Virus record (IMG/VR): IMGVR_UViG_3300045988_155334
Reading direction: 5' to 3' (one strand)
Source of the DNA: a virus
Taxonomy: Duplodnaviria > Heunggongvirae > Uroviricota > Caudoviricetes
DNA: 64,000 nucleotides
The notes under the pieces were generated by a model, which saw only the letters and a program-made list of their open reading frames with translations, searched no databases and had not been told where the DNA came from. Both the position numbers and the translations under genes were made by a program. Shown here one piece after another: positions 1,975-57,078 of this stretch (positions are counted from its first letter, which is position 1; every line of letters begins with the position of its first letter).

Positions 1975-1985
1975 CAAGCATATCC

Positions 1986-2420
1986 TTATGCTGTAGTCGT
2001 GTTTATGGCCATAACTGCGGTATATGTTTTGCCCACATACAGCGAGTCTTCTTGGACACAAATAATGGCGATTGGCTTATTCTCGTTATCCAGAACAACC
2101 AGAGTGTTGAATGGGTAGTTTTTCCCTTCCTGCAACTGACTTTGATCAAGGTCCATTCGGACAGTAATTATCCCGCCTGAGTAGGTTGGGACGAGGTTGA
2201 TGGTGCAAAATTGACTGGTCAGTTCTGCCAGATCGAAAGCCTTTGGCAGTTCTCCAATCTCATAATTGCCATCTCCTTTCTTAGTAACCAGTGAACTGGT
2301 ACCGAAAACGGCCTTGCTGATTAAAAATCGAGAGCCTTTGTTAATGGACGATTCAGCGCGCCGCTGATAGTAATAGTCCAACAACTGACTCTTATAGAGG
2401 TTTGTTGAGACGTCAGACAT
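1986..2420 (-). CDS. Tail fibre/baseplate-associated protein (P1 R-like by position)
   Basis: 144-aa ORF immediately upstream of the tail fibre gene in the same operon. Confidence 0.45.
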   Translation of the reverse strand: MSDVSTNLYKSQLLDYYYQRRAESSINKGSRFLISKAVFGTSSLVTKKGDGNYEIGELPKAFDLAELTSQFCTINLVPTYSGGIITVRMDLDQSQLQEGKNYPFNTLVVLDNENKPIAIICVQEDSLYVGKTYTAVMAINTTTA

Positions 2421-2471
2421 GATTTTCCCTAATCAATGTTGTGAAGCCTCATTGTAAGATAAGTAACTTGT

Positions 2472-2493
2472 CACCCCGCCCTGCGGACGGGGT
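2472..2493 (-). other. GC-rich intercistronic hairpin between the gp16-like gene and the R-like gene
   Basis: caccccg...cggggtg 7-bp stem; weak T-run, so probably attenuator or processing site rather than terminator. Confidence 0.3.
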
Positions 2494-2498
2494 GATTG

Positions 2499-3338
2499 TC
2501 ACGCATCGCTATCCAACAGCAAATCATCTGCGCGGGTGCGATCAAACGTAGGCGTTGCTTTCACAATAGTGCCGCCCGGCGTTGCAGTGATCGGGGCGTT
2601 AATCGACGTAACTTCAGTAAGCGAAGTTGTATCCGAAGTTTCAAACCAGCAGAATGCTTTTTCGGTATCAGAAATCTCATTCAAAGTGATCATGTCGGCC
2701 TGTTCATTTACAACAACCGACAAATAGAGCGTAAGCCCATCAAACACTATATGCAGTGGCAGTAGAGGCTTTACGAACTGATTAAACTTTCTGAGAATTT
2801 CTTCTGTAATTGCGGACTGATCTATCGATCCAGTAATACCCATTGTCCGGGCCAGGTCGTTTATGGGAATACTGATCATTCCTCTGGAAGTCAGAAACAT
2901 CTCGCCGAATGTGCCGCCGGTGGTTTCCAGTGTGCTTTCTGGAATCAGGACCGTGCCATAGGGATGTCGTTCAAAGTCCACCGGAGCATATATGGGATCC
3001 CATAAAACCGATATACCGTTAAATTCGCGATAAATTGTCTGGTTTATAGGGCGTTCAGTACCCTTAAAATGGATCTCATCAAACCGCTGTTGTAACAACA
3101 TCGGAACGGAAGATGAATTCGACGTTCTGATAGTAAAAAACTGGCCAAGTTCATTTGTCCTGGTCTCCAGATCCTCCTTGCTCATGGAGAAAATAGACTT
3201 CCGGTTGGTAATTCGCTCCAACCATGGGTCAACAAAGGTGTCCATCATTGACTGAACCAAATCAGCCAATGATTTATAAAGCAATGACTTTTGCTTAGCT
3301 GATGTAAGCCGGTTATTAAACCAGGAACGTTGCATCAC
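2499..3338 (-). CDS. Baseplate wedge protein, gpI-like (P1 gp16-like by position)
   Basis: 279-aa ORF following the gpJ-like gene, the typical W-J-I baseplate order of P2/Mu-type myoviruses. Confidence 0.45.
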   Translation of the reverse strand: MMQRSWFNNRLTSAKQKSLLYKSLADLVQSMMDTFVDPWLERITNRKSIFSMSKEDLETRTNELGQFFTIRTSNSSSVPMLLQQRFDEIHFKGTERPINQTIYREFNGISVLWDPIYAPVDFERHPYGTVLIPESTLETTGGTFGEMFLTSRGMISIPINDLARTMGITGSIDQSAITEEILRKFNQFVKPLLPLHIVFDGLTLYLSVVVNEQADMITLNEISDTEKAFCWFETSDTTSLTEVTSINAPITATPGGTIVKATPTFDRTRADDLLLDSDA

Positions 3339-4768
3339 TCCTCCTCATACGAAATATTGAAGGTGGAGTTTTCTGTATCCAGATAAACGAAATCGTAAAA
3401 GCCGTTGGACTCATACCACTCGACAAACTCCAGATAAAAGTCGCGGAAATAGCCCAGCGTTTCGATAAACGCCCAAACGTCTTTTTTCTTAATCAGGATG
3501 TACTTTCCGACGCGGTTCGGATCAAAGAAAGTTGAGTCGCGCCCAAATTTTTTTTCCAGTGCCGACTTCAGCTCATCGGTCACATTCTCAATGGTCAGGC
3601 TTGCCGATATCCGTCCGGTGATGGTTATCTTAAATGGTAGTTTTCTGACCTCTTTATAAGAGAATTTCTTGTTCAGTTCATTCGGTACCTTCTTAAAGGC
3701 AGCCAGGATCATTTCTTCAAGCTCTGACTGACTTTTATTCGGATGCCATCCTGAAATAAATATCTTATTGATATTCTGAACATTATAAGCACCATCTAAT
3801 TTTTCTTGCTGACCCTCGCCCCATGCCTTTACCCAGGACAGTCCCGGGATGTTACGCACCAGAAAATACGTATAGTCCCCGCCCCATACGACCTGATCAT
3901 CATAGGCAAGGTAATATTGTGCACGGTTACGTGTGATCTCCGTTGTTTCGGCATCGGTACCTGTGGTTATAGGTGTCGTTGTCTTAACTGAAATCAAATT
4001 AGCTAAATTAGCCGCAGAATCGACAGGCGTCAGGTTTTGGCCAGCAACCAGGGTTATATCGCCGTTGGTGCACCATACCTTAAGCGTAATTGTCGAGCCT
4101 TCTGGCGGTATTTGCCCAATTAGCCCATCGCCGAATCGAACTCCCAACTGCTCGGATGGTTTATAAAACTCAACGTAGACCTGGCTTTTACTACCGGCTA
4201 ACCGGAACATAGTGCTGGAAGACCACTGCGTGGTCTTACCATCGGTCGTCACGAATACTTCCAGCTTATAGCAGACAGCAGTGAGAGCCTTTGATAACAC
4301 GACTTCCAGAAATTCTTTGGCTGCCGTAACGGTATATGTCACCTCCTGGATTTCCAACTGTGCCACTTCTACCGTACCGGTGCCGTCAACCAACCTGCAT
4401 ACATCCATAGTCATGTAAGGGTACTGGTCGTCAGATATTAAAGGCGTGTTTTTGGGGATTACCGCTGGAGCATCTTCACTTGTGGCTGTGATCTCAACCA
4501 TCCCGGATGACGGTGTTGGCTTGGTACCAACGTAACTATTCGTTTCTGCCGCTGCCAAGATAGAGGAACGCCGCGTCGCGGTCGATATAAAGCCTTCAGC
4601 CAGCGCCGCATCGGCATACTGAAAGCACCTGTAGACAATCTGGGTAATAAACAATGTCAGCATCGAGACAAATTGAGAGCCGACAAACTTCGACCAGAAT
4701 GAATCTTTCTCGACAAGCTCTTCAAACTCTGCACGAATACTGTCTTTAGTCGGTGTTGTTTTACTCAT
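3335..4768 (-). CDS. Baseplate J-like protein (P1 BplA-like)
   Basis: 477-aa ORF between the gpW-like and gpI-like genes, start overlaps upstream stop. Confidence 0.5.
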   Translation of the reverse strand: MSKTTPTKDSIRAEFEELVEKDSFWSKFVGSQFVSMLTLFITQIVYRCFQYADAALAEGFISTATRRSSILAAAETNSYVGTKPTPSSGMVEITATSEDAPAVIPKNTPLISDDQYPYMTMDVCRLVDGTGTVEVAQLEIQEVTYTVTAAKEFLEVVLSKALTAVCYKLEVFVTTDGKTTQWSSSTMFRLAGSKSQVYVEFYKPSEQLGVRFGDGLIGQIPPEGSTITLKVWCTNGDITLVAGQNLTPVDSAANLANLISVKTTTPITTGTDAETTEITRNRAQYYLAYDDQVVWGGDYTYFLVRNIPGLSWVKAWGEGQQEKLDGAYNVQNINKIFISGWHPNKSQSELEEMILAAFKKVPNELNKKFSYKEVRKLPFKITITGRISASLTIENVTDELKSALEKKFGRDSTFFDPNRVGKYILIKKKDVWAFIETLGYFRDFYLEFVEWYESNGFYDFVYLDTENSTFNISYEEE

Positions 4769-5124
4769 AGCACCACGTCCTGTGTGATAGTTATATCCCT
4801 GATACGAATGGATATTTTCAACTTATCAAAAGCATCTCCCTCGGCTACTGACAAGCCAGAAATCGGTATGTCAGGTAAATCTACCGTCAGTTTTTGCAAC
4901 AGCATTGCCTCAACCGCAATTTGAACATGCGACAAGTTGGTCGGTTCGTGTTTAAACTGCGGTAAAACATTGCCCCATGACGGATCTCCGTATACCTCAC
5001 CCTGATAAGTGTTTAGCCACTCATATAAACGAGCGCCCCAGGCCTCCTCCTGGGACTCATACGTTTTTACGCCGGATAACTCCAGCGTCAGCAAAGGATC
5101 AATTTCGTTATTGTTGGCCATCAA
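4765..5124 (-). CDS. Baseplate gpW/gp25-like protein (P1 PmgA-like)
   Basis: 119-aa ORF directly after sit, overlapping stop/start. Confidence 0.4.
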   Translation of the reverse strand: MMANNNEIDPLLTLELSGVKTYESQEEAWGARLYEWLNTYQGEVYGDPSWGNVLPQFKHEPTNLSHVQIAVEAMLLQKLTVDLPDIPISGLSVAEGDAFDKLKISIRIRDITITQDVVL

Positions 5125-8100
5125 TCAACTCTCGCGTAGTCATTCATCAACGGATCATCAATTGACAGTGGTACCGTGCGCATAACGCCCGGCTGAGGCG
5201 TGCTGACCTTTACGACAGTTCCCTGGCCTTTCGCCGAGTCTTTGGTGTGCTCTTCAATCCTGGCAAGCAATGAGGTCATCTGCGCAAACAGCCGCTTCGT
5301 TTCACCATCAAGTGAAACGGTATTATCAGCCAACTGCATTGTCGGCTTGGCACCGGAACCGCCAAGGTCACTAATAACCTGCCCGTCTATCTGCATACGA
5401 CCGGTTGGTTGCTGCAAATCGTTGGCGGCAGTCGTCACCTGGGACGTGGAGGCTGGTTCAGGCGCATTATTTTTCCGCATCCCCGGCGAGTTGCGGAGTT
5501 TATCGAATAGTCCATCAATCCCCATTTGTGCGCCGAGATGGTCAAAGTAACTTGAGTTGTTGGCCACCGGACGCGCCTCTTCAACTGGCATCGGGGTATC
5601 AACATACACATTGCCAGCTGCTGTTGCGGTCCCCTTCCCTCGTGCACGTTCTTCGAGCGTTCCCTGAACGACTTCCCGACGCATCCCCCGGCCATTCATG
5701 AATTTGTTGACCAGATCGTTAACGCCAACAGCATTGCCGATTTTGTCTACCAGACCGCCTTTCTCAAACGGGCTATCACCAGGGGTAAACGCCAGGCCAG
5801 TAGACTGATCGATAACAGCGTTATCAGGCAGTGGTCCCCTCACTCCATATTGCGCCCCACCCTGTGCTCCTGCTCCAGGTGTATAGATTTCACCACCTAA
5901 ATAGCGAGCACGATGAGTATTGACCTTGATCGCGTACTCACGGTTTTCTTTCGATAAGTCACCTGTGCCTTTTTTCCACTTATTAATAGTGCCAAACCCA
6001 GCATTATATGCAGTGATGGCCTCGTTTAAGTCTCCATTGGCTTGCTTCAGATACTTGCTCATGAGAAGAGCCGCAGCTTCTGCCGATTTCACAGGATCAA
6101 ACGATTCACCTTCAGCTAAGCCAGTCTCTTCACGAGCAATCCCCGTGAACTGAAACATCCCCAGAGCACCGGTTTGGGATTTTGCATACGGATTACCACC
6201 AGATTCAGTTGCAGCAATCGCGTAAAGAGTGCCTTCTGGAAGACCGTATTTATTCTCTAGTTCAGCAAAATACGGAGCCAACTTATCGAGATTTGCCTTA
6301 CCTTCAGCGCCAAGACTTCCGACTTTTACATCCAAGTTGCCATTGTTGTAGGTATCCGCAGCTTTCTGAATGTCATTCCTGGTACCAGTGGTATTAAGCG
6401 ACGATGATGACGAGCTATTTTGACCAATAGCTTTATCAATTTTCTGCAACGCGCTATTGCCCGTTTCTACGGCATTTGCATTGATAATCTGATTGGCAGT
6501 TTGTTTAACTGTTTTATTGCTATCTTTCGCTGTGTCCAGTGCCGCATTTATCACGCGGGTAGCAATATTACTCTGTTTGGCATCGGATTCAGTTTTAGAA
6601 TCAGACGTCTCCTGGTGGCTATTAACCGGAGCTTTTAACTCTGGAGTGATTTCTTTCGCATTAGCCTCGCCGATCGGATTGGGTATTTTTGATACAATCA
6701 TTGCCGCAGGGGTATTTTTAACGGCATCAACCGCTGCATCTAATGCTTTACCTGGTAAATTTTTAACCCCATCCCAAATATTACCAGCCGCCTCTTTAAT
6801 GTGTTTCCCTGGGTTCTTAATGAAATCAATTGCACTATCAATTGCATCACTGAAAACCTGTTTCAGGTTATCGACAGTAAAGAAGTCTTTGATGGCATCC
6901 AGCTTTTCAAGCAGCTTATTAGATGTATCGCTAAACCATGCTGAAACAGCATCACCAATCTTTGCTGTGTAATCATCGAACTTGGTAGAAATGGTGTCGC
7001 CAAGGTTAGAAATATATGTTTCTAAGTTGGTAATCCCACTATCAATGGTCTGGGCAATACTTTCCGTCGAAAATGATTGCAACATATTGCCGATATCCTC
7101 AAATCCAAGTGATTTGAGAACCTCACCAATGGCGCTGCTAATACCAGATACCAGTCCCCCCATATCAAGAACATTAGCTAACGTATAAGCGGCTTTTTGC
7201 TGGAATGATGGATCTTGTCCTGATTTAAGCCCAAACGCTCGACGTTGCGCTTCTGTATCATTCCAACCGGTTACCGCATCATAAATACCTCCAGCCACTG
7301 TGCCGACTAGGGGAATTGCGCGTAACGCCCCTTTACCAACTGCCTTTAATCCAAGTTTACCTGCTGCCCGGGCAGCCAAATCTCCGCCTTCATGGGCGAG
7401 AGTCTTCTTGCCACCACCGCGTAGCATTCCTACAAGTTTCTTTGCCCCCAGAGCGCCAAAAGCGAGTGCTCCAGCTTTTTTCAGCATGCCACGCCCCATT
7501 AACAACGACGCGACGCCACCGGCCCCCTTCCCTAACAGGCTAAATAGTTTGGACAGCAAGCCGCCCTTCCTTTTCCCGGTGTTTTTGGCTATCTGATCAA
7601 GGGCGCTGAGAATCTTGTCATTGCCCTCTTTAATTTCGCTGGTCTGCTCCTGAAGTTCCTGAACCGTCCGTTTTTGGGTGTTAACCTGAACGACATCGGC
7701 ACTATTTTGCGATTTACGCCTAAAAAAACCTTTTCTACGGCTGTTATCGTCATTGCCACGAATCACATCGGCAATAGACTTTCTGGCACCATTAAGCGAT
7801 CCACCAACTTCTTTTGATATCCCGCCAAGCTCCTTCCCTGCTGCCCACAATGGACCAGCAACGGCATAACCTAACGCATCGACGGCACGAGTCTCTGAAG
7901 GGTTACCTATGCCTTCAGCTACTTTTGACAGTTTTTTTAATAAACCTGATTCAGCATTTAGACGCTCATCATCCTCTTTGCGCCTGGCCTTTTCAGCACG
8001 TTCAGCACGGGCATCTTCCGCTGCGGCCTTACTCCCTGACTTTCCAATAAAACGACCACGCGCATCGCGTTGGTTTTGGCTTTTTTGCGCACCGCCTTTT

Positions 8101-46715: not shown

Positions 46716-47222
46716 TTGAGTATTTTCAATAAACACGCACACCAGGAACGTCCGTACATCGTCATAGTAGATATTGATGGGACGATATCAGAGGCAACGG
46801 AAGACAGGCTGCATTTGCTTCCACCACCTGGCAAAGGTGCATTAACAGAGCACTGGAACGAGTTTAACCTTGCCTGTGACACCGATACTCCCATCACTCC
46901 AGTTATTGATATGGTGCGCCAGTTATTTAACGTTTACACGGTCTGGTTTGTAACCGGGCGCTGTGAGATCGCAAGGGATAAAACACGAGCCTGGCTGCGG
47001 AAGTACGTAACAAACGGGGCTGAGCCTTTGCTATCTATGCGTCCTGCCACCGATGACAGAAATGACGGCCCAGCAAAGATTGATCTCCTTAAGAAAATTG
47101 GTCTAAGTAAAATCGCGTTCGCGCTGGAAGATAAGATTGAAGTGGCGCGTGTTTTCAGAAGTCACGGTGTACTTACGTTAATGGTCAGGGAGTATGAAAA
47201 CGCGCTTCTTCATCAACAATAA
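46716..47222 (+). CDS. HAD-superfamily phosphatase-like protein
   Basis: 168 aa; motif I VDIDGTI; fold resembles polynucleotide 3'-phosphatase or nucleotidase. Confidence 0.55.
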   Translation: MSIFNKHAHQERPYIVIVDIDGTISEATEDRLHLLPPPGKGALTEHWNEFNLACDTDTPITPVIDMVRQLFNVYTVWFVTGRCEIARDKTRAWLRKYVTNGAEPLLSMRPATDDRNDGPAKIDLLKKIGLSKIAFALEDKIEVARVFRSHGVLTLMVREYENALLHQQ

Positions 47223-47238
47223 TTGCTCTAATAAATCT
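47222..47238 (+). promoter_or_regulatory. C1 operator overlapping the promoter of the rightward accessory operon
   Basis: ATTGCTCTAATAAATCT, 16/17 match. Confidence 0.6.
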
Positions 47239-47320
47239 TGATTTTTAAAACAGAGAAAGTGAAAATAAAAACATGCCGCAAGGCGCGGCATGTATCCAAT
47301 CAATCACAGGAGCTGAAAAT

Positions 47321-47407
47321 ATGAACACGGCATTCAAAATCATTATGGCCGCGATCTATTTCTGGCTGTTCTCTATCACTTTTGGCGGCATCGTCGCACA
47401 TGGGTAA
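47321..47407 (+). CDS. 28-aa hydrophobic peptide, first ORF of a C1-operator-fronted operon
   Basis: MNTAFKIIMAAIYFWLFSITFGGIVAHG; strong ribosome-binding site CAGGAG 8 nt upstream. Confidence 0.4.
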   Translation: MNTAFKIIMAAIYFWLFSITFGGIVAHG

Positions 47408-47416
47408 GGGGGATGC

Positions 47417-48142
47417 ATGAAAGGCGAAGTGAAAGAGCGCGGCATGATTTTCAACGATGAGATGGTCCGGGCCATCCTCGAAGGAAGGAAAACGCAGACG
47501 CGGCGGATAATGAAAAATCAGCCTGCGGAAGTTGGTCCAGAAGCACCAGTGATGGTTAGAAAAATTGGTGCAGGTTTTCAGTGGTACGGGGCTGATGGTG
47601 TAAGCAGTGTTTTCAATTGCCCCTTTGGTATCGTCGGCGATCGAATTTGGGTTCGTGAAACATGGGCGATATTAGGCAATGAGGATGGTTGCAGTGTGGA
47701 CTGGAACGACAACCTTTGTCGTGGCGATGAGAAGAACGCAGCAAGGATTTATCGGGCCAGTTGCGAGCAAAAACCTGGTGATTACGGCTTATGGTCGATA
47801 CCCGATGATGCCGACTGGAAACCTCACACTGTGAATGAAAAGTTTGATGGTGGGTGGCGTCCATCAATTCACATGCCGCGATGGGCATCACGCATCCTGT
47901 TGGAAATTACCAACGTGCGCGTTGAGCGGTTGAACGATATCAGCGAATGCGATGCAAGGGATGAGGGCGTTCCGCCTGCTGGAAGTTTGCTTCCTGATCA
48001 CCCGGGAACATTCCTTACTCCCAAGGGGGATTTCGCAATGGCCAAGGTTGCGTTCCAGCGCCTGTGGGAATCCATCTACGGCGAAGAAAGCTGGAGTGCT
48101 AATCCCTGGGTTTGGGTAATCGAGTTTGAGCGTATTCAGTAG
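47417..48142 (+). CDS. ASCH-domain (PUA-like) protein
   Basis: 241 aa; FNDEMVRAILEGRKTQTRR N-terminal signature. Confidence 0.5.
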   Translation: MKGEVKERGMIFNDEMVRAILEGRKTQTRRIMKNQPAEVGPEAPVMVRKIGAGFQWYGADGVSSVFNCPFGIVGDRIWVRETWAILGNEDGCSVDWNDNLCRGDEKNAARIYRASCEQKPGDYGLWSIPDDADWKPHTVNEKFDGGWRPSIHMPRWASRILLEITNVRVERLNDISECDARDEGVPPAGSLLPDHPGTFLTPKGDFAMAKVAFQRLWESIYGEESWSANPWVWVIEFERIQ

Positions 48143-48151
48143 GGCGAGCGT

Positions 48152-48373
48152 ATGCAATCAGTTATTTGTGAGGAAGTCGGCCTGAATAAAGCATCCCCAG
48201 CAGAGTTAAGAACAAGTCTCGAAATGGCGCATAGCCTTGCTCAAATTGGTGTCAGGTTTGTACCAATTCCAGTTGAAACAGATGAAGAATTTCACAGGTT
48301 AGCGGCATCGGCAGCACAAAAGCTGGAAATCATGGCAGCGAAAGTAGAGAAAGCTGAAGGAGCGACAAAATGA
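48152..48373 (+). CDS. Small hypothetical protein
   Basis: 73-aa ORF, translationally coupled to the next. Confidence 0.35.
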   Translation: MQSVICEEVGLNKASPAELRTSLEMAHSLAQIGVRFVPIPVETDEEFHRLAASAAQKLEIMAAKVEKAEGATK

Positions 48374-48585
48374 GCAAGCCAACCGACGAAGAAATAGTTC
48401 GGGTGTTGGAAGAACACGGGCGCTGTATGACTTACGTCGTGACCAACTGGCTTAGGGATAAATATCGCACACTCAAAACGGCATACGTTTTGCGTCGTCT
48501 AAAGAAACTGGAGTTCGACGGGAAAGTAAAGCGCGTTAACAGTTCTTATATAAGACAAATTTGCTGGGAGGCATCCAGTGAGTAA
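48370..48585 (+). CDS. Small winged-helix-like DNA-binding protein
   Basis: 71-aa ORF. Confidence 0.35.
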   Translation: MSKPTDEEIVRVLEEHGRCMTYVVTNWLRDKYRTLKTAYVLRRLKKLEFDGKVKRVNSSYIRQICWEASSE

Positions 48586-49222
48586 CCGTTTTTACATGAT
48601 GTGCTTGCGTGAAACTGTGGGTAATAACGCCTCATTCCATTGCCATAACGGCAATGGTTACAGTTCTGATATCGATCGCGCTCATGTTTACACGCTGGAA
48701 GAAGCCCAAAAAGCCTGGAATTGTGGGCGAGATATCGATCAGCCTGTTTGTGCCGATAGTGTGGATGCAATGGCTGTGTGGCACGTTGATTGCCAGTACA
48801 TCCCTACAGAAAGCCTGATTGAGTCAGATTGCACTGAGTATGTGGCCTACAAAAAAGGTAGCTGGAACGGCAACGATGTTTACTGGCTTCAACACGGTGG
48901 ATTGCCAACAGATGACTTCAGTAAAGCGACCATCTTTAGCGTCGCCAACAAAAACGAACCAGGAATAGTTTGGTTGCCATTTTCCATTGCTGATGCAGCA
49001 AAGCGCCGGACGTTCAATATCAATAACTTTAACCGCAGAACAATGGTTCAGGGCGCAGGTTTGGTCATGCCTGACTGGTTGAAAGAGCAGAACAGAAGAA
49101 AGAAGTCGCGAAGCGGGAAGGTGCGTTGGAATTGTCCGCATTGCGGAAAAATAACCTGGCAGTACAGCCCATATGATTTTGAAGGCTGTAGTGATTACAA
49201 CTGTGAAGGATGGCGAGAATGA
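48578..49222 (+). CDS. Cys-rich protein with C-terminal zinc ribbon
   Basis: 214 aa; ...CPHCGKITW...CSDYNCEGW. Confidence 0.4.
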   Translation: MSNRFYMMCLRETVGNNASFHCHNGNGYSSDIDRAHVYTLEEAQKAWNCGRDIDQPVCADSVDAMAVWHVDCQYIPTESLIESDCTEYVAYKKGSWNGNDVYWLQHGGLPTDDFSKATIFSVANKNEPGIVWLPFSIADAAKRRTFNINNFNRRTMVQGAGLVMPDWLKEQNRRKKSRSGKVRWNCPHCGKITWQYSPYDFEGCSDYNCEGWRE

Positions 49223-49899
49223 CAATTGACTATCAGGTACTGCGTGAGGCGGCAGAAAAGGCAACACCAGACGAATGGGTCGCATTTATTTCGACGGATA
49301 CTGGTACTTATGCGGTGCACACGCCCGGTGATGAACGATGTGAAGACGTTATCAAATGGACCGGCTTTGATGGACAGAAAAATGCAGAGAACAACGCTCG
49401 TCATGTTGCCGCGTTCAACCCAAAGGTTGCACTGGAGCTGCTTGGTGAAATTAAGTGCCTGGAGGACACAAATATTGATGCTATGTGTCGAATTGCAGAG
49501 CTTGAGACTAATCTCGCGGCGCTGGTGGCGGAGAATGCGGGGCTAAAGGCGATATGTGATGACCGTCGCAGATTCATCATGAATGGGGTGCAGATGGGTT
49601 ATATCAAGGTGCCAGCAGCGGAAACAGATCCAGACCTTGAGACAATTCGCATTGCTATATCACCACAAAAGCCCATTCCAGCCACTGATGCTTTCCTGTC
49701 TGAAGTGCGGGCGCAGGGGGTGGATGCTGCTATAGAAGCTGCAAAAAATCTGGTGGTCCAAGAATATGAGTATAAGGATTTCAAAGCGGCGCAGAGTGAT
49801 TGCTGTATGCACCCTGGTTCAGACCTGGTAGGGAAGGTTGAAATGACTGAGTGGTTAGTTGACTTTGCTGCCCAGCTTCGCAAAGGAGGCAACCAGTGA
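49210..49899 (+). CDS. Ead/Ea22-like protein, paralog 1
   Basis: 229 aa; N-terminus IDYQVLREAAEKATPDEW; coiled coil. Confidence 0.45.
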   Translation: MARMTIDYQVLREAAEKATPDEWVAFISTDTGTYAVHTPGDERCEDVIKWTGFDGQKNAENNARHVAAFNPKVALELLGEIKCLEDTNIDAMCRIAELETNLAALVAENAGLKAICDDRRRFIMNGVQMGYIKVPAAETDPDLETIRIAISPQKPIPATDAFLSEVRAQGVDAAIEAAKNLVVQEYEYKDFKAAQSDCCMHPGSDLVGKVEMTEWLVDFAAQLRKGGNQ

Positions 49900-50522
49900 G
49901 CGAAATTAATTACCAGGCATTGCGTGAGGTGGCGGAACGTGCAATTCCAGCAATGGAACGCCTGTTAATGTTGCCAGCTGATGATGATTTGTTAAGTGAA
50001 CAGGAACTTAAAGATTACGGTGTGGATATTGATGCGCTCAACGCCTTCAAATTTCTGACCGGACCAGAAACCGTGCTGGCGCTGCTGGATGAACGGGAAA
50101 GAAACCAGCAATACATAAAACGCCGCGACCAGGAGAACGAGGAAATTGCGCTAACTGTAGGGAAGCTGCGTGTTGAGCTGGAAGCCGCAGAGAAGCGCAA
50201 CGCAAAATTACAAAGCGAGAATGCATACATCCGCAACCGGTTCAAAGAGCTGGACCTGTTAATCGGGAAAAACATTCTGGTCATGCAGGCTGCGATTATC
50301 GAATGGCAGGCAACTGGCGACGCTAAAAGCGGACTGGCATGGATTTATAACACACTGTTTGGCCCAGGCGAATTGCCGGACGAATCTGAGAAAGATGCTC
50401 AGGCCTACTTTAATCGCAAATATGCACCGATTGACGAAAAGCTTATGGAGCTTCACAAGTGGTTTTGGGAACAAAGTGAAGCCGAGCGCGCCGCTGGCAT
50501 TCGCATCAAAGGAGGTGAGTAA
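49896..50522 (+). CDS. Ead/Ea22-like protein, paralog 2
   Basis: 208 aa; N-terminus INYQALREVAERAIPAME; coiled coil. Confidence 0.45.
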   Translation: MSEINYQALREVAERAIPAMERLLMLPADDDLLSEQELKDYGVDIDALNAFKFLTGPETVLALLDERERNQQYIKRRDQENEEIALTVGKLRVELEAAEKRNAKLQSENAYIRNRFKELDLLIGKNILVMQAAIIEWQATGDAKSGLAWIYNTLFGPGELPDESEKDAQAYFNRKYAPIDEKLMELHKWFWEQSEAERAAGIRIKGGE

Positions 50523-50694
50523 TGCGTGTGGCATTTTTCGGCTTGTTACCGTACCCGCCTTGTTTTTGGACTTCTGCGCTAATTGCAAAGCCGCATGTCC
50601 TGATGGCTGACAACATCATCCCGGCACCAAAGCGCCGCCATACCGGTATTGCGGCTGCACGACGCGAAGCAAAGAAACGCAGGAGAGCAAAACG

Positions 50695-50883
50695 ATGAAA
50701 AACCGTAAAGCAAAGATTCTGTTAGTTCGTAGAAACGCTCCTGGCGTCTGGCAGTGGGTGAGACTCAGCAACCGACGGATGGGGTTGATGAAATATTACG
50801 GGATGATGGATTGTGGTTTTTGCAAAAAGCCCAGCGCGGCGCAAAACCGCTGGAAAAACCACTTGCGCACTAAAGGAGAGTGA
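50695..50883 (+). CDS. Small basic protein
   Basis: 62-aa ORF; start overlaps a preceding 58-aa ORF (50522-50698). Confidence 0.25.
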   Translation: MKNRKAKILLVRRNAPGVWQWVRLSNRRMGLMKYYGMMDCGFCKKPSAAQNRWKNHLRTKGE

Positions 50884-51104
50884 TGTGCCGACATTATTCA
50901 GAAAAGAATATCCGCGAAAAAGTAGAGCGACAGAATTTCTGTTTCTCATTCTGTTTATCGTGTTGATGACACCGATATCCCCGCTAATTTTTGTCTGGGT
51001 AATCGGGAAAATAATTGAGCCAGTTATTGAATTGTATAACGACGTGGTATGGGCGTCGTTCAATACACTGCACAATAAAATTAATCCATATAAGGAAAAC
51101 TGAA

Positions 51105-51470
51105 ATGGCACTGACGAAAAAACAACGTGCAGAGCTGCGCATGAAGTTCGGCGGTCGCTGTGCTTATTGTGGCTGTGAACTTGGCGAAAAGTGGCATGCA
51201 GACCATGTAAAACCGGTCATTCGTTTTGCTGGGAATATGCTTCACCAGGAACGTGACGATATATCCAACCTGGTTCCGGCATGCCACCCATGCAATCTGC
51301 ACAAGCATTGCAGTAGCCTGGAAGATTATCGGCGAATTATCAGTGATGGTCGTCGTGAATTCCTTGCGTCCGGGAAAGGCAAAGCGCTGGTTCGTATGGG
51401 ATTGGTTGAAATGAAATCTGACCCGGTTGTGTTCTGGTTTGAAAAATATCAAGAAGGGGATACGGCATGA
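51105..51470 (+). CDS. HNH endonuclease
   Basis: ORF 51015-51470; likely ATG 51105 after AAGGAAAA; CAYCGCEL...HADHVKPV...NLVPACHPCNLHKH. Confidence 0.7.
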   Translation: MALTKKQRAELRMKFGGRCAYCGCELGEKWHADHVKPVIRFAGNMLHQERDDISNLVPACHPCNLHKHCSSLEDYRRIISDGRREFLASGKGKALVRMGLVEMKSDPVVFWFEKYQEGDTA

Positions 51471-51853
51471 CCACTATTACCAAAGAGCGACTGCTGACAA
51501 TCAAGCAGTGGCGCGAAACATACGGACCTGGTAGCAACGTTGTACTGCCAGCAGAAGAAGCGGAAGAACTGGCACGAATTGCTCTGGCATCGCTGGAAGC
51601 AAAACCAATAGGTGCTTTCCACATTGCAGAACAGCAGGTCGATGGCACAAGTGACTACATCAAGGATGGGGAATGGCCTATTGATAATGGAATTATTGAG
51701 GTCTACGCCGCTCCACCCGTTCCAGTAGTACCGGAAGAAAAACCAATGCCTAATCCTCTTAGCATGTACGCGGTTGATGCTGTTGCCGCTATTGCAGAGG
51801 TAAGAGGCTGGAACGCCTGCCGTGCCGCTATGCTTGAGGGTAAAGGAGAGTGA
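51467..51853 (+). CDS. Hypothetical protein, paralogous to the N-terminus of the DUF551-like protein
   Basis: 128 aa; shares IALASLEA and GWNACRAAML with 52063-52947. Confidence 0.4.
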   Translation: MTTITKERLLTIKQWRETYGPGSNVVLPAEEAEELARIALASLEAKPIGAFHIAEQQVDGTSDYIKDGEWPIDNGIIEVYAAPPVPVVPEEKPMPNPLSMYAVDAVAAIAEVRGWNACRAAMLEGKGE

Positions 51854-51854
51854 T

Positions 51855-52052
51855 ATGGACAAAAACACACCTGCTTACTGGAGTTTATCACTTGATACTG
51901 AATGCCCAAAATGCGGCCACAATTTCGATCTGCTTTGCGATGCTGATTTCTGGGAATTTTCTGGAGCAAAACAGGCATGTGAAGAAATAAAAGGTTACGA
52001 AACATGCTGCCCAGAATGTAACCATGAATTTAAAACAGATTTTGTGTATTGA
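51855..52052 (+). CDS. Small zinc-ribbon protein
   Basis: ORF 51822-52052; likely ATG 51855 after AAAGGAGAG; CPKCGHNF...CCPECNHEF. Confidence 0.4.
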   Translation: MDKNTPAYWSLSLDTECPKCGHNFDLLCDADFWEFSGAKQACEEIKGYETCCPECNHEFKTDFVY

Positions 52053-52062
52053 GGCATAACGA

Positions 52063-52947
52063 ATGACCACTTTTACTAAAGAACAATTAATAGAGATAAT
52101 TAAGCGCAATATAACGGTTATGGATCGTTATCCTGATTTAGTAACTGCACAAATGGATCTGGAAGTATACAAAATCGCGCTGGCATCACTGGAAGCAGAA
52201 CCAGTTGCTTATATTTTCAAACATCCGGCCGGGAAATTATTCTGGGCTTTAACGGATGAAAGCAATAAAGAGCAATCGGACGTTATTCCTGTTTATGCTG
52301 ACTCACCTGCGCCGGTTGTGCCGGATGAAATAGACGTAAACGATGTACCAAGGGCGGTGACATATTTCAAGACACACAGAGATTGTTACGCAGATGGCTG
52401 GAACGCCTGCCGCGCCGCCATGCTTCAGTCCGGAAACTTTCGGGAAAACAAGAATTCGTCAACCAATAATTTTCGGGAAATCGCGGAAACGTCAACCAAC
52501 TATCCGGTAATTCCTAGTGAGGTGTTGTCCGCAATCCTGAAGGTTGCCAAGATTCGTGCCGATTTCGATGATTTTGACGGTGACAGGCGAGGTATCGGTG
52601 ATTGTCTGGATGAGGCTGAGCAAGAGCTTATCGTTACCATTAACAAATATGCCAGTCAGTTGGCAGCAGAACCGATAGCGACTAATGACGTTCGAGAGCA
52701 GACAGCCATTCCGCAAGTTCCGGTAACTCCGGATGGTTGGATAAGCTGTAGTGAGCGAATGCCGAATACCAAAACAGCCGTGCTTGTTGCCGTGGAGTTT
52801 GACAGGAAAGGTGACTGGCGAATGAAATGGGCTACTTACATCCCGGGGCATCCTGACGCTAATGATGGGTGGATAATTCCTGGTGCGTCGTGGAAACCGT
52901 CACACTGGATGCCGCTACCAGAACCGCCGCAGGAGGTGAATCAATGA
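52063..52947 (+). CDS. Protein with DUF551-like C-terminal domain
   Basis: 294 aa; C-terminus PDGWISCSERMPNTKTAVLV...HWMPLPEPP typical of lambdoid-phage DUF551. Confidence 0.5.
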   Translation: MTTFTKEQLIEIIKRNITVMDRYPDLVTAQMDLEVYKIALASLEAEPVAYIFKHPAGKLFWALTDESNKEQSDVIPVYADSPAPVVPDEIDVNDVPRAVTYFKTHRDCYADGWNACRAAMLQSGNFRENKNSSTNNFREIAETSTNYPVIPSEVLSAILKVAKIRADFDDFDGDRRGIGDCLDEAEQELIVTINKYASQLAAEPIATNDVREQTAIPQVPVTPDGWISCSERMPNTKTAVLVAVEFDRKGDWRMKWATYIPGHPDANDGWIIPGASWKPSHWMPLPEPPQEVNQ

Positions 52948-53029
52948 GCTGGCCTGAAGCATTCACCACGGTAGGAATTGTGATGGCGGCAGCGCTGGGT
53001 TTGTATTCAATTTGTCGCTGGTGGTAACG

Positions 53030-53263
53030 ATGGGGAAATTAACTTTTGTAGTCGAATTTGAGGATGGTAAAGAGCCACCTGTTAGCGCCAATCTTGATGT
53101 TGCTGGTGGCAGGCTTGTTTCGGTTCTATTTGGTGACTACCGAGATGACTTCTTCCAACCAGAAGAAGTTGATGTAGTGCGAGAGGCATTAAACGAGTTA
53201 AGTGTTGACAACGATGATGCTCATGCGGAAATCATCCAAAAAATGGAACTGCTAACTCACTAA
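53030..53263 (+). CDS. Small acidic hypothetical protein
   Basis: ORF 53012-53263 (TTG); likely ATG 53030. Confidence 0.3.
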   Translation: MGKLTFVVEFEDGKEPPVSANLDVAGGRLVSVLFGDYRDDFFQPEEVDVVREALNELSVDNDDAHAEIIQKMELLTH

Positions 53264-53441
53264 ATTAGAAATTATGGTGCTATCACCTACGACACCGAGA
53301 GAAAATTTATAATGTCAAAAGTAAATGTTTTGATTTTTTCAGCAATTGTTGGCTTTGGTTTTACTGCCGGAGTGCAGATTTATATTACGTGGGAAAAAAT
53401 CATCAACTACGCATGGAGTTGTTTTATTAAGTGAGGTAAGT

Positions 53442-53735
53442 ATGTGGAGAGGTAATAGTCATGGCAAAAGCCAGATGATACTTACCGAATATCAGCTCGA
53501 CCACAAAACCAATAAATCACGCTCAGTATATTTGCTCCGGCACAATAGCCGTGTAAGAAATACCGTGCTGGAACAAAATCTGACAGTTGAAATGGATAAT
53601 TACGGGGGCTTCAAGCCAACAATTTCGCTTGATGATTTTCCTCGTGGTTTAAGCGAAAGAGAAGCAATGCTGAAATTAGCAGAATGGCTACAAAGATTAA
53701 GCATTGCTATTGAAGATAACTGGTCTGAACCTTAA
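53442..53735 (+). CDS. Small hypothetical protein
   Basis: ORF 53346-53735; likely ATG 53442 after GTGAGGTAAG. Confidence 0.35.
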   Translation: MWRGNSHGKSQMILTEYQLDHKTNKSRSVYLLRHNSRVRNTVLEQNLTVEMDNYGGFKPTISLDDFPRGLSEREAMLKLAEWLQRLSIAIEDNWSEP

Positions 53736-53741
53736 ATTTAT

Positions 53742-54116
53742 ATGATGACACTAAAACATTTTCTTGACCGCCCATTATGGGCGGCAGCCGCAGGCTATGA
53801 CTTTAATTATATGGATTGCATGTCTTATACTGCCAATGCATACGACCATTCGTTCACCCTGCTGTTTAATTCTTTAAGAATATTGCCGGAAACAGAAGTT
53901 GGAGAGCTTCATTTATGGCTATTGGGCTTTATCGCGGCTGTCGTTGGCATTGCTGTATGGCCTTTTATTTTCTGGCTGGTGGCTGTTGTAGTGTGGTTTA
54001 AGTGCAAGACATACCGGAAAAAGTATTTCTTGGGTGACGGAATGACTGATATTGCCAAAATGAACATTGAAAAATGGACTAAGGAATGTGAAAAGAAATG
54101 GCGCAAAAAGAAATGA
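53742..54116 (+). CDS. Small membrane protein
   Basis: 124 aa; two hydrophobic helices (LWLLGFIAAVVGIAVWPFIFWLVAVVVWF). Confidence 0.4.
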   Translation: MMTLKHFLDRPLWAAAAGYDFNYMDCMSYTANAYDHSFTLLFNSLRILPETEVGELHLWLLGFIAAVVGIAVWPFIFWLVAVVVWFKCKTYRKKYFLGDGMTDIAKMNIEKWTKECEKKWRKKK

Positions 54117-54778
54117 CTACTCTAACGACAGCATACTTACAGCAATTGGTATTTTTTGCAGGCGAGGCTACTTGTCATCCTGACACAAACTATTTATTGG
54201 AATTTGAGAGGTTAGCGTCACCCGGTATCGTTCTGGAACTGGCCCAACAGGTACTGGCCTTGAGACAAAAAGAGCAACATGAAAGTAATACGTGTAGATT
54301 GAATTTTGAGCAGTGGCTGGAACAGCAACGCGGAAAAATCGATGTGGACTGTGGTTGTGTGTCCACTGAAACATTCATGCACTGGCTGCGGGTAGCTTAC
54401 GAGGCTGGCAACTATCCGGATATTCCGGATAGTTCGGTGTCAGCGCCAGGAAAGGGCGTCACCGGTGGACGTATCCGCATTAAGCCGCATGTTTATCGCG
54501 AACTGGTTAACCGTCTCCACGATACAGCGATCAAGTGTGCTGGCACCCAGCAATTACGAGAAAGAATTAGCCGTGTTTTGGGCGACGTTATTACGCCAGA
54601 TCATCATAAACAAGCCGAGAAAAGTGGCTTGGAAAGGTGTCACCTTGAGGCGGCATTAAACATTAAGCCGGGGCATACGCTTGGCATTATTGATGCACTA
54701 TTGGTTCATAAGATGGCCAGGGCTTTATTGCCGCTGGTGGCTGAAAAGCATGAGGCGGACCATGCCAACGAAAGCTGA
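54098..54778 (+). CDS. Hypothetical protein
   Basis: 226-aa ORF; start overlaps the preceding gene. Confidence 0.4.
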   Translation: MAQKEMTTLTTAYLQQLVFFAGEATCHPDTNYLLEFERLASPGIVLELAQQVLALRQKEQHESNTCRLNFEQWLEQQRGKIDVDCGCVSTETFMHWLRVAYEAGNYPDIPDSSVSAPGKGVTGGRIRIKPHVYRELVNRLHDTAIKCAGTQQLRERISRVLGDVITPDHHKQAEKSGLERCHLEAALNIKPGHTLGIIDALLVHKMARALLPLVAEKHEADHANES

Positions 54779-55046
54779 GTTACAGGCGCGCATAGAGATT
54801 CTTGAAAAAGAGAATGCGAGTCTAAAAGGAATGCTGGCGCGGGCGGAAAGGGAATTATCAGGCAAATTATTGCCAGAAGAGCTGCCACCAGCAGATATAC
54901 CTGATCGAGTGTCCTGGTGGATGAAGTATTTCCGTGCACCGTGGGAGGCGTTTTGGTGCTACGACCATCGCAGATGGTGTGATGAGCTTGATAGCAGTTT
55001 CCCCTATTTTGCGGAAGGGAACTCTTGCCCTGAATGTAGGAGTTAA
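54762..55046 (+). CDS. Coiled-coil protein with C-terminal Cys motif, paralog A
   Basis: ORF 54681-55046; likely ATG 54762; C-terminus PWEAFWCYDHRRWCDELDSSFPYFAEGNSCPECRS. Confidence 0.4.
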   Translation: MPTKAELQARIEILEKENASLKGMLARAERELSGKLLPEELPPADIPDRVSWWMKYFRAPWEAFWCYDHRRWCDELDSSFPYFAEGNSCPECRS

Positions 55047-55351
55047 TGATGACCGGCGAGCTTTATTTTAAAATGGCACGGGAGCGGCGTGTGCATCTGG
55101 ATCGGATATTTCATCTCCAGAAGAGAGTAGAAGAACTGGAACGTCGTCTGAACTGTTATCCTGTTGATATGGTGTCTGCAATACCGCCGATTCCAATAGA
55201 AATGCAGATCCGCCTATGGATGGAAGAATATGGAATGCCGTGGGAGATATTTTTCTGCTTCGACCATAAACAGTGGGTAGATGAGCTGGATAATAGTTTC
55301 CCATATTTCACAGAGAACACATGCCCAGTATGCAGGAAGAACGGAATATGA
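55046..55351 (+). CDS. Coiled-coil protein with C-terminal Cys motif, paralog B
   Basis: 101 aa; C-terminus PWEIFFCFDHKQWVDELDNSFPYFTENTCPVCRK. Confidence 0.4.
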   Translation: MMTGELYFKMARERRVHLDRIFHLQKRVEELERRLNCYPVDMVSAIPPIPIEMQIRLWMEEYGMPWEIFFCFDHKQWVDELDNSFPYFTENTCPVCRKNGI

Positions 55352-55872
55352 CAAAATTTGGAAAGCTGGAAGCTCATTTGCTAACTCGTAACTACCGCCA
55401 TGATATACACCCATATAGACAGTGGATCGATGAAAGCGAAGGAGTAGTTACATTCCCTCTATACAGGTTTGATGGGATGTTGGCTGGGTATCAGACATAT
55501 AGACCAGGTGCTCCTAAGCAGCATAGCAATCCGAAGATGGCCCGGTATTTCACGCGATCACACGGCAGACAGTTACTTTGGGGAACCTATCTTCCTTTAA
55601 AAGATGGCCCAATATGGATAACTGAGTCTATTTTTAAGAGCGCAGCTGTACACAATGCGGGCGGCAATTCGTGGGCGCTGTTAGGTTCGACTTTCTCCGC
55701 AGGATTACGCCGTCAACTTGCGATGCTGCCGTATGACTTTCGTGTAATAGGTGACAATGATGCGGCTGGTAAATTACTTGTGAAGTCTTTCGGAAAAGGT
55801 TTTGTGGCCCCGGATCTTGACGAGCTACAACCACATGAAGTGTCTCATTTGATTTTTAGCCATAGCAAATAA
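55348..55872 (+). CDS. Standalone Toprim-domain protein
   Basis: ORF 55321-55872; likely ATG 55348 (ATGA overlap with the upstream stop); conserved Glu in ITESIFKS and DxD in VIGDNDAAGK. Confidence 0.5.
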   Translation: MTKFGKLEAHLLTRNYRHDIHPYRQWIDESEGVVTFPLYRFDGMLAGYQTYRPGAPKQHSNPKMARYFTRSHGRQLLWGTYLPLKDGPIWITESIFKSAAVHNAGGNSWALLGSTFSAGLRRQLAMLPYDFRVIGDNDAAGKLLVKSFGKGFVAPDLDELQPHEVSHLIFSHSK

Positions 55873-55932
55873 GCATCTCTCCCCTTTGAGGCCACAATTA
55901 GTGGCCTTAAACAATGTGTTTTCTACCTCGAT

Positions 55933-56514
55933 TTAGCCTCTATTATCGTTTTGCATTTCTCTAATCCGGTTCAGAACTACTTCATGCTGGGCTTGGATAG
56001 CGGCTTTTTCGTTTTCAAGTCGGGCAATAGACATCTCTAATTCTTTGCTGTACCAGGCGAGTTGGGCCAGGTTCATCCGGTTGTGGTCGAGAGTTGGAGA
56101 CACGTCGACGCGCTCCCTTTCTTCCTGCTTTAATGAGAAGAGATTCATCTCATCCCTTGAGGAAAATTCAGCAACAATTTCTTGTTGATGATCCGGTCGC
56201 TGCGGCATCCTCGCCAGTATAAATGGCGGTTCTTTTGAAAACATGAATGTCGGCTGTGACCGTGTTTTCACCCATCTAGCCTGCTGCCCTTCGGCAAGTT
56301 CACAGGCTTCATCATAGTTATTTGCCAAACCAAGCACGGATGGACGGTCCCACGCGCCACCATTCAGACAATAAACAACAATTTTCCCGTCAGGTTGTGT
56401 AACCCCATAGGGATGGTCCCACCAGACGTCCAGCTGAGCTTTAGAGCGTTTCTCGTTAGGAGTGCAGTCAAAATTTTTGGGCAATACAGGATCGAGAGGA
56501 ATGCGGGCAGGCAT
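55933..56514 (-). CDS. Hypothetical protein divergent from humD (Lxr-like by position)
   Basis: 193-aa ORF; LexA box lies in the shared upstream region. Confidence 0.35.
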   Translation of the reverse strand: MPARIPLDPVLPKNFDCTPNEKRSKAQLDVWWDHPYGVTQPDGKIVVYCLNGGAWDRPSVLGLANNYDEACELAEGQQARWVKTRSQPTFMFSKEPPFILARMPQRPDHQQEIVAEFSSRDEMNLFSLKQEERERVDVSPTLDHNRMNLAQLAWYSKELEMSIARLENEKAAIQAQHEVVLNRIREMQNDNRG

Positions 56515-56688: not shown

Positions 56689-57078
56689 ATGGGCTTCCCT
56701 TCTCCTGCGGCGGATTATGTTGAAAGCCGAATTTCTCTTGATCAGCAACTAATCAGGCATCCATCAGCGACCTACTTCATGCGGGCGGCAGACAGCCATC
56801 ACCGTGAGGGAATATTGCAGGGTGCTTTGCTGGTGGTTGATTCCTCGCTTACTCCGGTTGATGGTTCGCTGCTTGTCTGCGCTATGGAGGGTGAATATCG
56901 CATAAAGAGATACCGAAAGTATCCGCGCCAGCACCTGGAGGATTTAAGCACCGGGAAGAAAGAGGCGTTACCAGTAGATGACGATGGTTACACGGGTAGT
57001 AATGCTGTTTTTGGTGTGATCACTCATGTCATCAATGATGCCCGAAGTGGGGAATTTGATGATTGTCCGGTGATTTAA
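56689..57078 (+). CDS. humD: HumD, UmuD'-like translesion-synthesis accessory protein
   Basis: 129 aa; UmuD C-terminal-domain-like, lacking the cleavable N-terminus. Confidence 0.8.
   Translation: MGFPSPAADYVESRISLDQQLIRHPSATYFMRAADSHHREGILQGALLVVDSSLTPVDGSLLVCAMEGEYRIKRYRKYPRQHLEDLSTGKKEALPVDDDGYTGSNAVFGVITHVINDARSGEFDDCPVI

Follow-up and report, generated by a model that had tools for sequence, protein, structure and literature searches.

A standalone protein with a predicted DnaG-type primase core, related to the anti-retron protein Rad, in a P1-like phage-plasmid

The closest described relative of the gene considered here is rad, which is ORF75 of the T5-like phage SP15. In a preprint (Azam et al. 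2023, bioRxiv 10.1101/2023.03.15.532788), this gene was reported to rescue deletion phages from the retrons Ec67, Ec78, and Ec83; rescue of lambda vir was reported for Ec48 and Se72. The homologue from phage Privateer was strongly active as well, including against retron Ec78, and two other tested homologues gave moderate protection only. As judged in vivo by qPCR and msDNA gels, Rad decreased msDNA and the msr-msd RNA and left the transcripts of the reverse transcriptase (RT) and the effector unchanged; the exchanges R13E, P33T, I88T, D135H, and E156H weakened the protein (bioRxiv 10.1101/2023.03.15.532788). The peer-reviewed version describes ORF75 as the determinant for evasion of retron-Eco2 and retron-Eco7 (Nat Commun 2024, PMC11555353). 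The claim of ncRNA degradation was dropped from this version, which says that the mechanism could not be determined. [quoted passage not shown] We found no report of in vitro nuclease activity of Rad in the searchable literature.

We analysed a stretch of viral DNA of 64,000 nucleotides (IMG/VR record IMGVR_UViG_3300045988_155334), which is called the window in the following. The rad-like gene is situated at 55348..55872 on the plus strand and codes for a product of 174 aa, which is predicted to be a standalone DnaG-type primase catalytic core. If translation began at the ATG at 55321, which is in the same frame, the product would have 183 aa. The start at 55348 was favoured because the homologues begin at the same Met: the homologue of PhiR41_1 is annotated with 174 aa and its Met corresponds to the start at 55348, and the N terminus supported by the homologues reads MTKFGKLEAHLL in the window and MTVDELTEHLL in T5.076.

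T5.076 is a protein of 172 aa which is labelled 'DNA primase' and is encoded in the tRNA region of T5 beside hegA. The window protein can be aligned with it from end to end (44% identity, 168 aligned positions) and is also homologous to gp062 of Proteus phage Privateer. T5.076 has R13, P33, I88, D135, and E156 at exactly the positions mutated in the Rad preprint, and since all five residues are found at the matching positions T5.076 can be equated with Rad. In the window protein these positions correspond to R14, P37, I91, D138, and E159, and all five residues are identical. The window gene resembles rad of SP15, T5, and Privateer in size, in its single domain, and in being located in a variable accessory region. 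It belongs to a named and phenotypically characterised family which is already known from such elements. The discovery value is consequently small, as the name, the phenotype, the presence in phage-plasmids, and the Toprim label in RefSeq are on record for the family or for the window protein. From the relation to the 44%-identical T5 Rad, anti-retron activity is predicted for the window protein.

The acidic residues typical of a Toprim domain are retained. E93 lies in the motif ITESIFKS (codon 55624-55626), D136 (55753-55755) and D138 (55759-55761) belong to the motif VIGDNDAAGK, and a third acidic motif, DLDE, comprises the residues 156-159 (D156, D158, and E159; 55813-55824). When 65 diverse members of the family are aligned, E93, D136, D138, and G141 prove conserved to at least 90%, and the motifs take the forms E-G-I-F (with E93), D-x-D-x-A-G (with D136, D138, and G141), and DLDE. 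Further features kept in this alignment are L11, R14, the stretch tFPLy..G.l.GYQ.YRP., and RYFT followed by WG. The C terminus lies about 15 residues past DLDE, and the N terminus opens straight into the RNA-polymerase domain (RPD). The protein carries no additional ATPase, zinc-binding, or helicase domain. No ATPase was found next to the gene among the open reading frames or in the Pfam scan, PADLOC was without a match, and no helicase gene adjoins the rad-like gene in the window.

The protein itself had no match in Pfam, NCBIfam, or PADLOC, even at E<=1. The Toprim assignment is accordingly based on the predicted fold and the family profile instead of a direct Pfam match. In the PHROGs collection the protein falls into phrog_849, 'DNA primase' (E=2.9e-53), with a weak match to the primase-helicase family phrog_47. 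A HMMER search of 1.84 billion cluster representatives yielded 343 clusters at 50% identity (E<=1e-3), and nearly all of the best 150 of these 343 representatives are standalone proteins of 160-190 aa. The short form is thus the norm in the family and not a truncation, and a truncated or pseudogenised primase could be ruled out.

A single-sequence phmmer search against the PDB sequences gave a spurious match only (E=1.2). For the comparison with the PDB a profile was therefore built from the 65-member family alignment. This profile matched the catalytic core of E. coli DnaG (3B39, 1EQN, and 1DD9) with E=3e-6. The alignment runs from the FPI/GxxxG motif, well ahead of the Toprim part, through DxDxAG. 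The next matches were five more bacterial DnaG cores; T7 gp4 followed with E=0.05, and the similarity to RNase M5 and the small Toprim proteins was marginal (E=0.1-0.75). The identity of the window protein to DnaG-type primases amounts to 12-21%.

An AlphaFold2 model was calculated with the 65-member alignment as input (pLDDT 95.8, pTM 0.90). In a Foldseek search of the PDB the best 36 matches, with E values from 1e-5 to 8.5e-3, were all DnaG-type primase domains; among them are DnaG of E. coli, P. aeruginosa, Aquifex, M. tuberculosis, B. subtilis, and S. aureus, T4 gp61, and T7 gp4. In the fold comparison the figure was 12.7 for Aquifex DnaG (163 of the 174 residues), 12.6 for both human Twinkle (159 residues) and B. 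subtilis DnaG (164 residues), 12.5 for the T7 primase fragment 1NUI (148 residues), 11.8 for E. coli DnaG (161 residues), and 9.6 for T4 gp61 (153 residues). RNase M5 and the small Toprim protein 2I5R also reached 9.6, matching in the Toprim part only (87-90 residues), and topoisomerases remained below 8 with about 83 residues. Between 148 and 164 of the 174 residues therefore superpose on complete DnaG-type RNA-polymerase domains, that is, on the N-terminal subdomain together with the Toprim part. On the basis of the Foldseek matches and this superposition, the modelled protein is a complete primase RNA-polymerase domain of the DnaG/T7 type which has no zinc-binding, helicase-binding, or helicase part.

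The known proteins of this fold differ from the window protein in several respects. The DnaG-type primases (DnaG of E. coli, Aquifex, and B. subtilis, 1NUI, and T4 gp61) possess the zinc-binding and helicase or helicase-binding domains that the window protein lacks, and they prime, whereas the documented role of the Rad family is counter-defence. The primase-like domain of metazoan Twinkle is fused to a helicase, whereas the window protein stands alone; furthermore, the Twinkle domain has lost its catalytic residues, whereas Rad keeps the acidic ones. RNase M5 and small standalone Toprim proteins (6TG6, 2I5R/2FCJ) lack the N-terminal primase subdomain, which accounts for roughly half of Rad.

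An earlier note on this DNA, made from the sequence alone, had described a standalone Toprim protein of 174 aa with signature residues and without an attached ATPase, primase zinc-binding domain, or helicase. This description agrees with our results: both motifs quoted there were found, E93, D136, and D138 are kept, DLDE can be added, and none of the named domains was detected. The Toprim fold, for which the note had suggested a structure and profile check, is present in the AlphaFold2 model and in the family profile, with the catalytic residues intact. The term minimal Toprim, however, does not fit a protein that superposes on the full primase domain including its N-terminal subdomain. Nor does the protein have the architecture of RNase M5 and the small standalone Toprim proteins, in which a Toprim domain of about 110-120 aa alone is the catalytic module.

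We then considered the genomic setting. The flanks of the window consist of a P1-type backbone with lxr, humD, phd, doc, pdcA, pdcB (DUF968), lpa, pacA, and pacB, which shows about 95-98% DNA identity to P1, P7, SJ46, RCS47, and hundreds of E. coli plasmids of ~95 kb. The window is a P1-like phage-plasmid. The described carriers of Rad are virulent T5-like phages with the gene among tRNA genes, whereas the window gene is located in a temperate P1-like phage-plasmid next to lxr and humD. In reference P1 (NC_005856) hot, a homologue of Pol III theta, is found just upstream of the convergent lxr (locus 5386-5649). No hot homologue was detected anywhere in the window by tblastn, and the rad-like gene occupies the hot slot beside lxr/humD (window 55348-55932). 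Its convergent neighbour is lxr (LexA-regulated function; 55933..56514, minus strand), and humD of the P1 backbone is situated at 56689-57078. Together with phd and doc, these two genes form the conserved P1 backbone to the right of the variable slot.

Between the convergent genes rad and lxr a consensus scan gave a pattern match to a terminator-like hairpin (55885..55911, plus strand) with an 11-pair stem and a GGCCAC/GTGGCC core, which is the probable end of a rightward operon. At the other end of the region, upstream of a pmgT-like gene, a match to the operator of the P1 C1 repressor with one mismatch was identified (47222..47238, plus strand). It is equivalent to OpmgT/Op88 of P1. The window contains 10 matches to the C1 operator compared with 0.37 expected, and the one at 47222-47238, 8 kb away from rad, is the sole match upstream of rad on its gene string. 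About 17 small accessory ORFs of the same strand lie between this operator and rad, among them Ea22/EaA-like, DUF551, and HNH-like (51015-51470) ORFs and several PHROGs without an assigned function. From this arrangement we infer that rad probably closes a rightward operon which is repressed by C1. Among P1-like plasmids the region 47222-55872 is far more variable than its flanks and may be an accessory or anti-defence island. One ORF of this region (51822-52052, 76 aa, phrog_4173) contains two CxxC pairs (CPKCGHNF ... CCPECNHEF) and codes for a putative zinc-binding accessory protein.

Two paralogous genes of phrog_3797 precede rad directly, both on the plus strand. The first (54762..55046) codes for 94 aa if the Met that agrees with the homologues is taken as the start, and a longer ORF starts at 54681. 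The second is located at 55046..55351, and its stop codon overlaps the start of rad (aatATGAca, an ATGA overlap). Both products combine an N-terminal coiled coil with a Cys motif, C-x2-H-x19-C-x2-C in paralog 1 and C-x2-H-x18-C-x2-C in paralog 2, and they are 52% identical over 54 aa (E=1e-21). The pattern C-x2-H-x17-19-C-x2-C is conserved in the family. The NCBI name of this family, 'antitoxin PHD', is apparently a propagated misnomer. The spacing of the motif resembles the CHC2 zinc finger of primases, and for this reason we examined whether rad and its neighbours could be a split primase in which the Cys-motif proteins provide the zinc-binding domain in trans. The AlphaFold2 model of paralog 1 (pLDDT 91) had no fold match in the PDB (best E=4.3) and no resemblance to the primase zinc-binding domain, and Pfam zf-CHC2 did not match the Cys-motif proteins.

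The two families are not inherited together. Many plasmids have only rad in common with the window, with the similarity beginning exactly at the first base of rad. PhiR41_1 and the SSU5-like and S. sonnei plasmids have a different gene upstream of rad, which lacks the Cys motif, and in lambdoid prophages the Cys-motif family is found between the recombination genes and xis/int with no Rad nearby. Since each family occurs without the other, the pairing is not conserved, and the Cys-motif paralogs are local context and not a conserved partner of rad. The split primase was ruled out by the missing fold match and the lack of co-inheritance. Translational coupling of rad to the Cys-motif paralogs, as proposed in the earlier note, is plausible from the ATGA overlap, and the paralogy was confirmed; the coupling is nevertheless a local and not a conserved arrangement.

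By tblastn, homologues of the Rad family were found in 489 phage records. The rad-like protein also matched 176 plasmid records, 78 of them over the full length, which fits the earlier reports of Rad in P1/D6 and SSU5 phage-plasmids. The full-length plasmids comprise a P1-like group of 92-100 kb, an SSU5-like group of ~108-113 kb, to which S. sonnei plasmids with 96% identity belong, and an A. baumannii group of ~107 kb at 39% identity. RefSeq labels the window protein 'toprim domain-containing protein'; the database labels 'DNA primase' and 'hypothetical protein' are misleading for the Rad family. About 95 P1-like plasmids and phage SJ46 (2501-2698) contain an unannotated 3' relic of the gene beside lxr, which corresponds to the residues 109-174 with 80-85% identity. 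These relics suggest that rad has repeatedly been broken within the gene by recombination or deletion.

We read the gene neighbourhoods from annotated records of phages and plasmids. Rad followed by a humD-like S24 peptidase gene is common to P1-like and SSU5-like phage-plasmids with ~96-97% protein identity. The pair was found in S. sonnei pAUSMDU00010534_01 (locus 3001-4087) and in PhiR41_1 (locus 5001-6072), and in SSU5-like phage-plasmids it adjoins apbC and metG. This distribution points to a module of rad and the S24 peptidase gene which is exchanged between unrelated phage-plasmid backbones.

Other contexts occur in the wider family. In Kagunavirus Golestan (locus 1556-3492) the Rad-family gene overlaps the 3' end of a gene for a 474-aa helicase; these surroundings resemble a replication module more than they do an anti-defence island. 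The Privateer homologue lies near a DNA polymerase gene. In Vibrio phage F99 (locus 2631-4465) and in Shewanella phage 1/4 a tRNA nucleotidyltransferase gene lies beside the gene of the Rad homologue or overlaps with it. Fusions with another domain are rare; the partner is a PolyA_pol head domain of the CCA-adding type (P0083), a HAD phosphatase (P0084), a cytidylyltransferase-like domain (P0147), or a DUF3268 zinc-finger domain (the fusion set being P0083, P0084, P0147, and P0091). None of the records of isolated phages matches 80% or more of the Rad-CCA fusion.

Taking these results together, we consider it probable that, as one joint reading, the window gene is a P1-type Rad orthologue whose product is a primase core disabling host retrons, probably by cutting their ncRNA at its Toprim site. 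The orthologue would have lost the zinc-binding domain and the helicase or helicase-binding part, or would never have had them, and the metal-binding site of the Toprim part is intact within the primase RNA-polymerase core. The gene rad is the last of the accessory string, whose transcription probably begins upstream of pmgT at a promoter controlled by C1; under C1 control Rad would be made on infection or induction. Rad would then disable the retrons of the host by a fall of the msr-msd ncRNA and hence of msDNA, as described in the preprint. Metal-dependent cleavage of the retron ncRNA at E93, D136, D138, and D156/D158/E159 would be the likeliest chemistry, and the primase-type nucleic-acid groove may hold the substrate. 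The assignment of the primase-core fold narrows the choice of experiments on how a core without a zinc finger could lower retron ncRNA. In the earlier note the protein had been regarded as a possible nuclease or decoy. The guess of a counter-defence function fits published Rad; the conserved acidic site speaks for an enzyme and against an inert decoy.

Several points count against this explanation. The identity to T5 Rad is no higher than 44%, two of the homologues in the preprint protected moderately only, the degradation of ncRNA is described in the preprint but no longer in the peer-reviewed version, and the C1 operon is deduced from a single operator match 8 kb upstream. DnaG-type RNA-polymerase domains are nucleotidyl transferases and not known nucleases, which weighs against cleavage of the ncRNA. 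In addition, some Rad homologues, those of Golestan and Privateer, appear to lie in replication modules.

We considered several alternatives to ncRNA cleavage by a primase core. First, Rad could keep primase-type chemistry or substrate binding, for instance by adding or removing nucleotides at single-stranded msDNA or at the priming region of msr-msd. In this case, the fusions of the CCA and HAD types and the nearby genes for CCA-adding-type nucleotidyltransferases would be signs of a broader activity on RNA ends, and the inhibition of retrons would be one of its results. We regard this as unlikely.

Second, the protein could be an accessory primase for the replication of the phage-plasmid, which makes RNA primers and receives template recognition by a zinc-binding domain in trans, either from the Cys-motif paralogs or from host DnaG. 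The whole rad-like protein has the fold of the DnaG/T7 primase RPD with the sequence motifs retained, the upstream paralogs have the conserved C-x2-H-x17-19-C-x2-C pattern, and one Rad homologue is fused to the DUF3268 zinc-finger domain. In Golestan the gene comes directly after a helicase gene, with which it overlaps, and the Privateer homologue belongs to a replication module. Split primases with standalone zinc ribbons have moreover been described in jumbo phages (PMC7824862). However, the model of the Cys-motif protein lacks the primase zinc-binding fold, zf-CHC2 was not found, and the Cys-motif family is not co-inherited with rad. More than 90% of the family are standalone proteins of 160-190 aa without a zinc-binding or helicase-binding domain. 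Furthermore, the tRNA-rich, anti-defence island of T5 that contains rad is deleted in T5n, SP15m, and BF23 with viability kept, and the ~95 P1-like plasmids with the relic survive with this 3' part alone. A role in priming is therefore improbable in our view.

Third, the primary activity could be directed at RNA ends or tRNA, such as processing, trimming, or template-independent addition of nucleotides, with the inhibition of retrons as a consequence. The rare fusions to the PolyA_pol head (P0083), the HAD phosphatase (P0084), and the cytidylyltransferase-like domain (P0147) would agree with this, as would the tRNA nucleotidyltransferase genes that neighbour the Rad homologues of Vibrio phage F99 and Shewanella phage 1/4 and the position of T5 Rad among tRNA genes. 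The fusions are rare, however, and the Rad-CCA fusion is not covered to at least 80% by any isolated phage record. Anti-defence islands which gather independent counter-defence genes explain the clustering with tRNA genes equally well, and no tRNA genes or CCA enzyme were found near rad in the window or in the other plasmids examined. We give this possibility a similarly small chance.

Finally, OLD and GajA use Toprim domains and the Toprim acidic residues are present in the window protein, yet the proposal of the earlier note that it is a minimal Toprim DNA nuclease or a decoy against OLD/Gabija-type defence is highly improbable and was rejected for want of sequence or fold support, as PADLOC gave no match, the fold is of the primase type with structural relatives other than OLD-type Toprim closest, the ABC-type ATPase that is coupled to Toprim in OLD and Gabija GajA is found neither in the protein nor next to it, and the characterised homologues act against retrons.

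With the preferred reading of the gene as an anti-retron rad, phage-plasmids that are spreading in clinical E. coli and Shigella would carry an anti-retron gene, which may aid their establishment in hosts with retrons. The Rad plasmids of A. baumannii (NZ_CP035046.1 and relatives) come from clinical isolates as well, and the protein is labelled there only as 'toprim domain-containing protein'.
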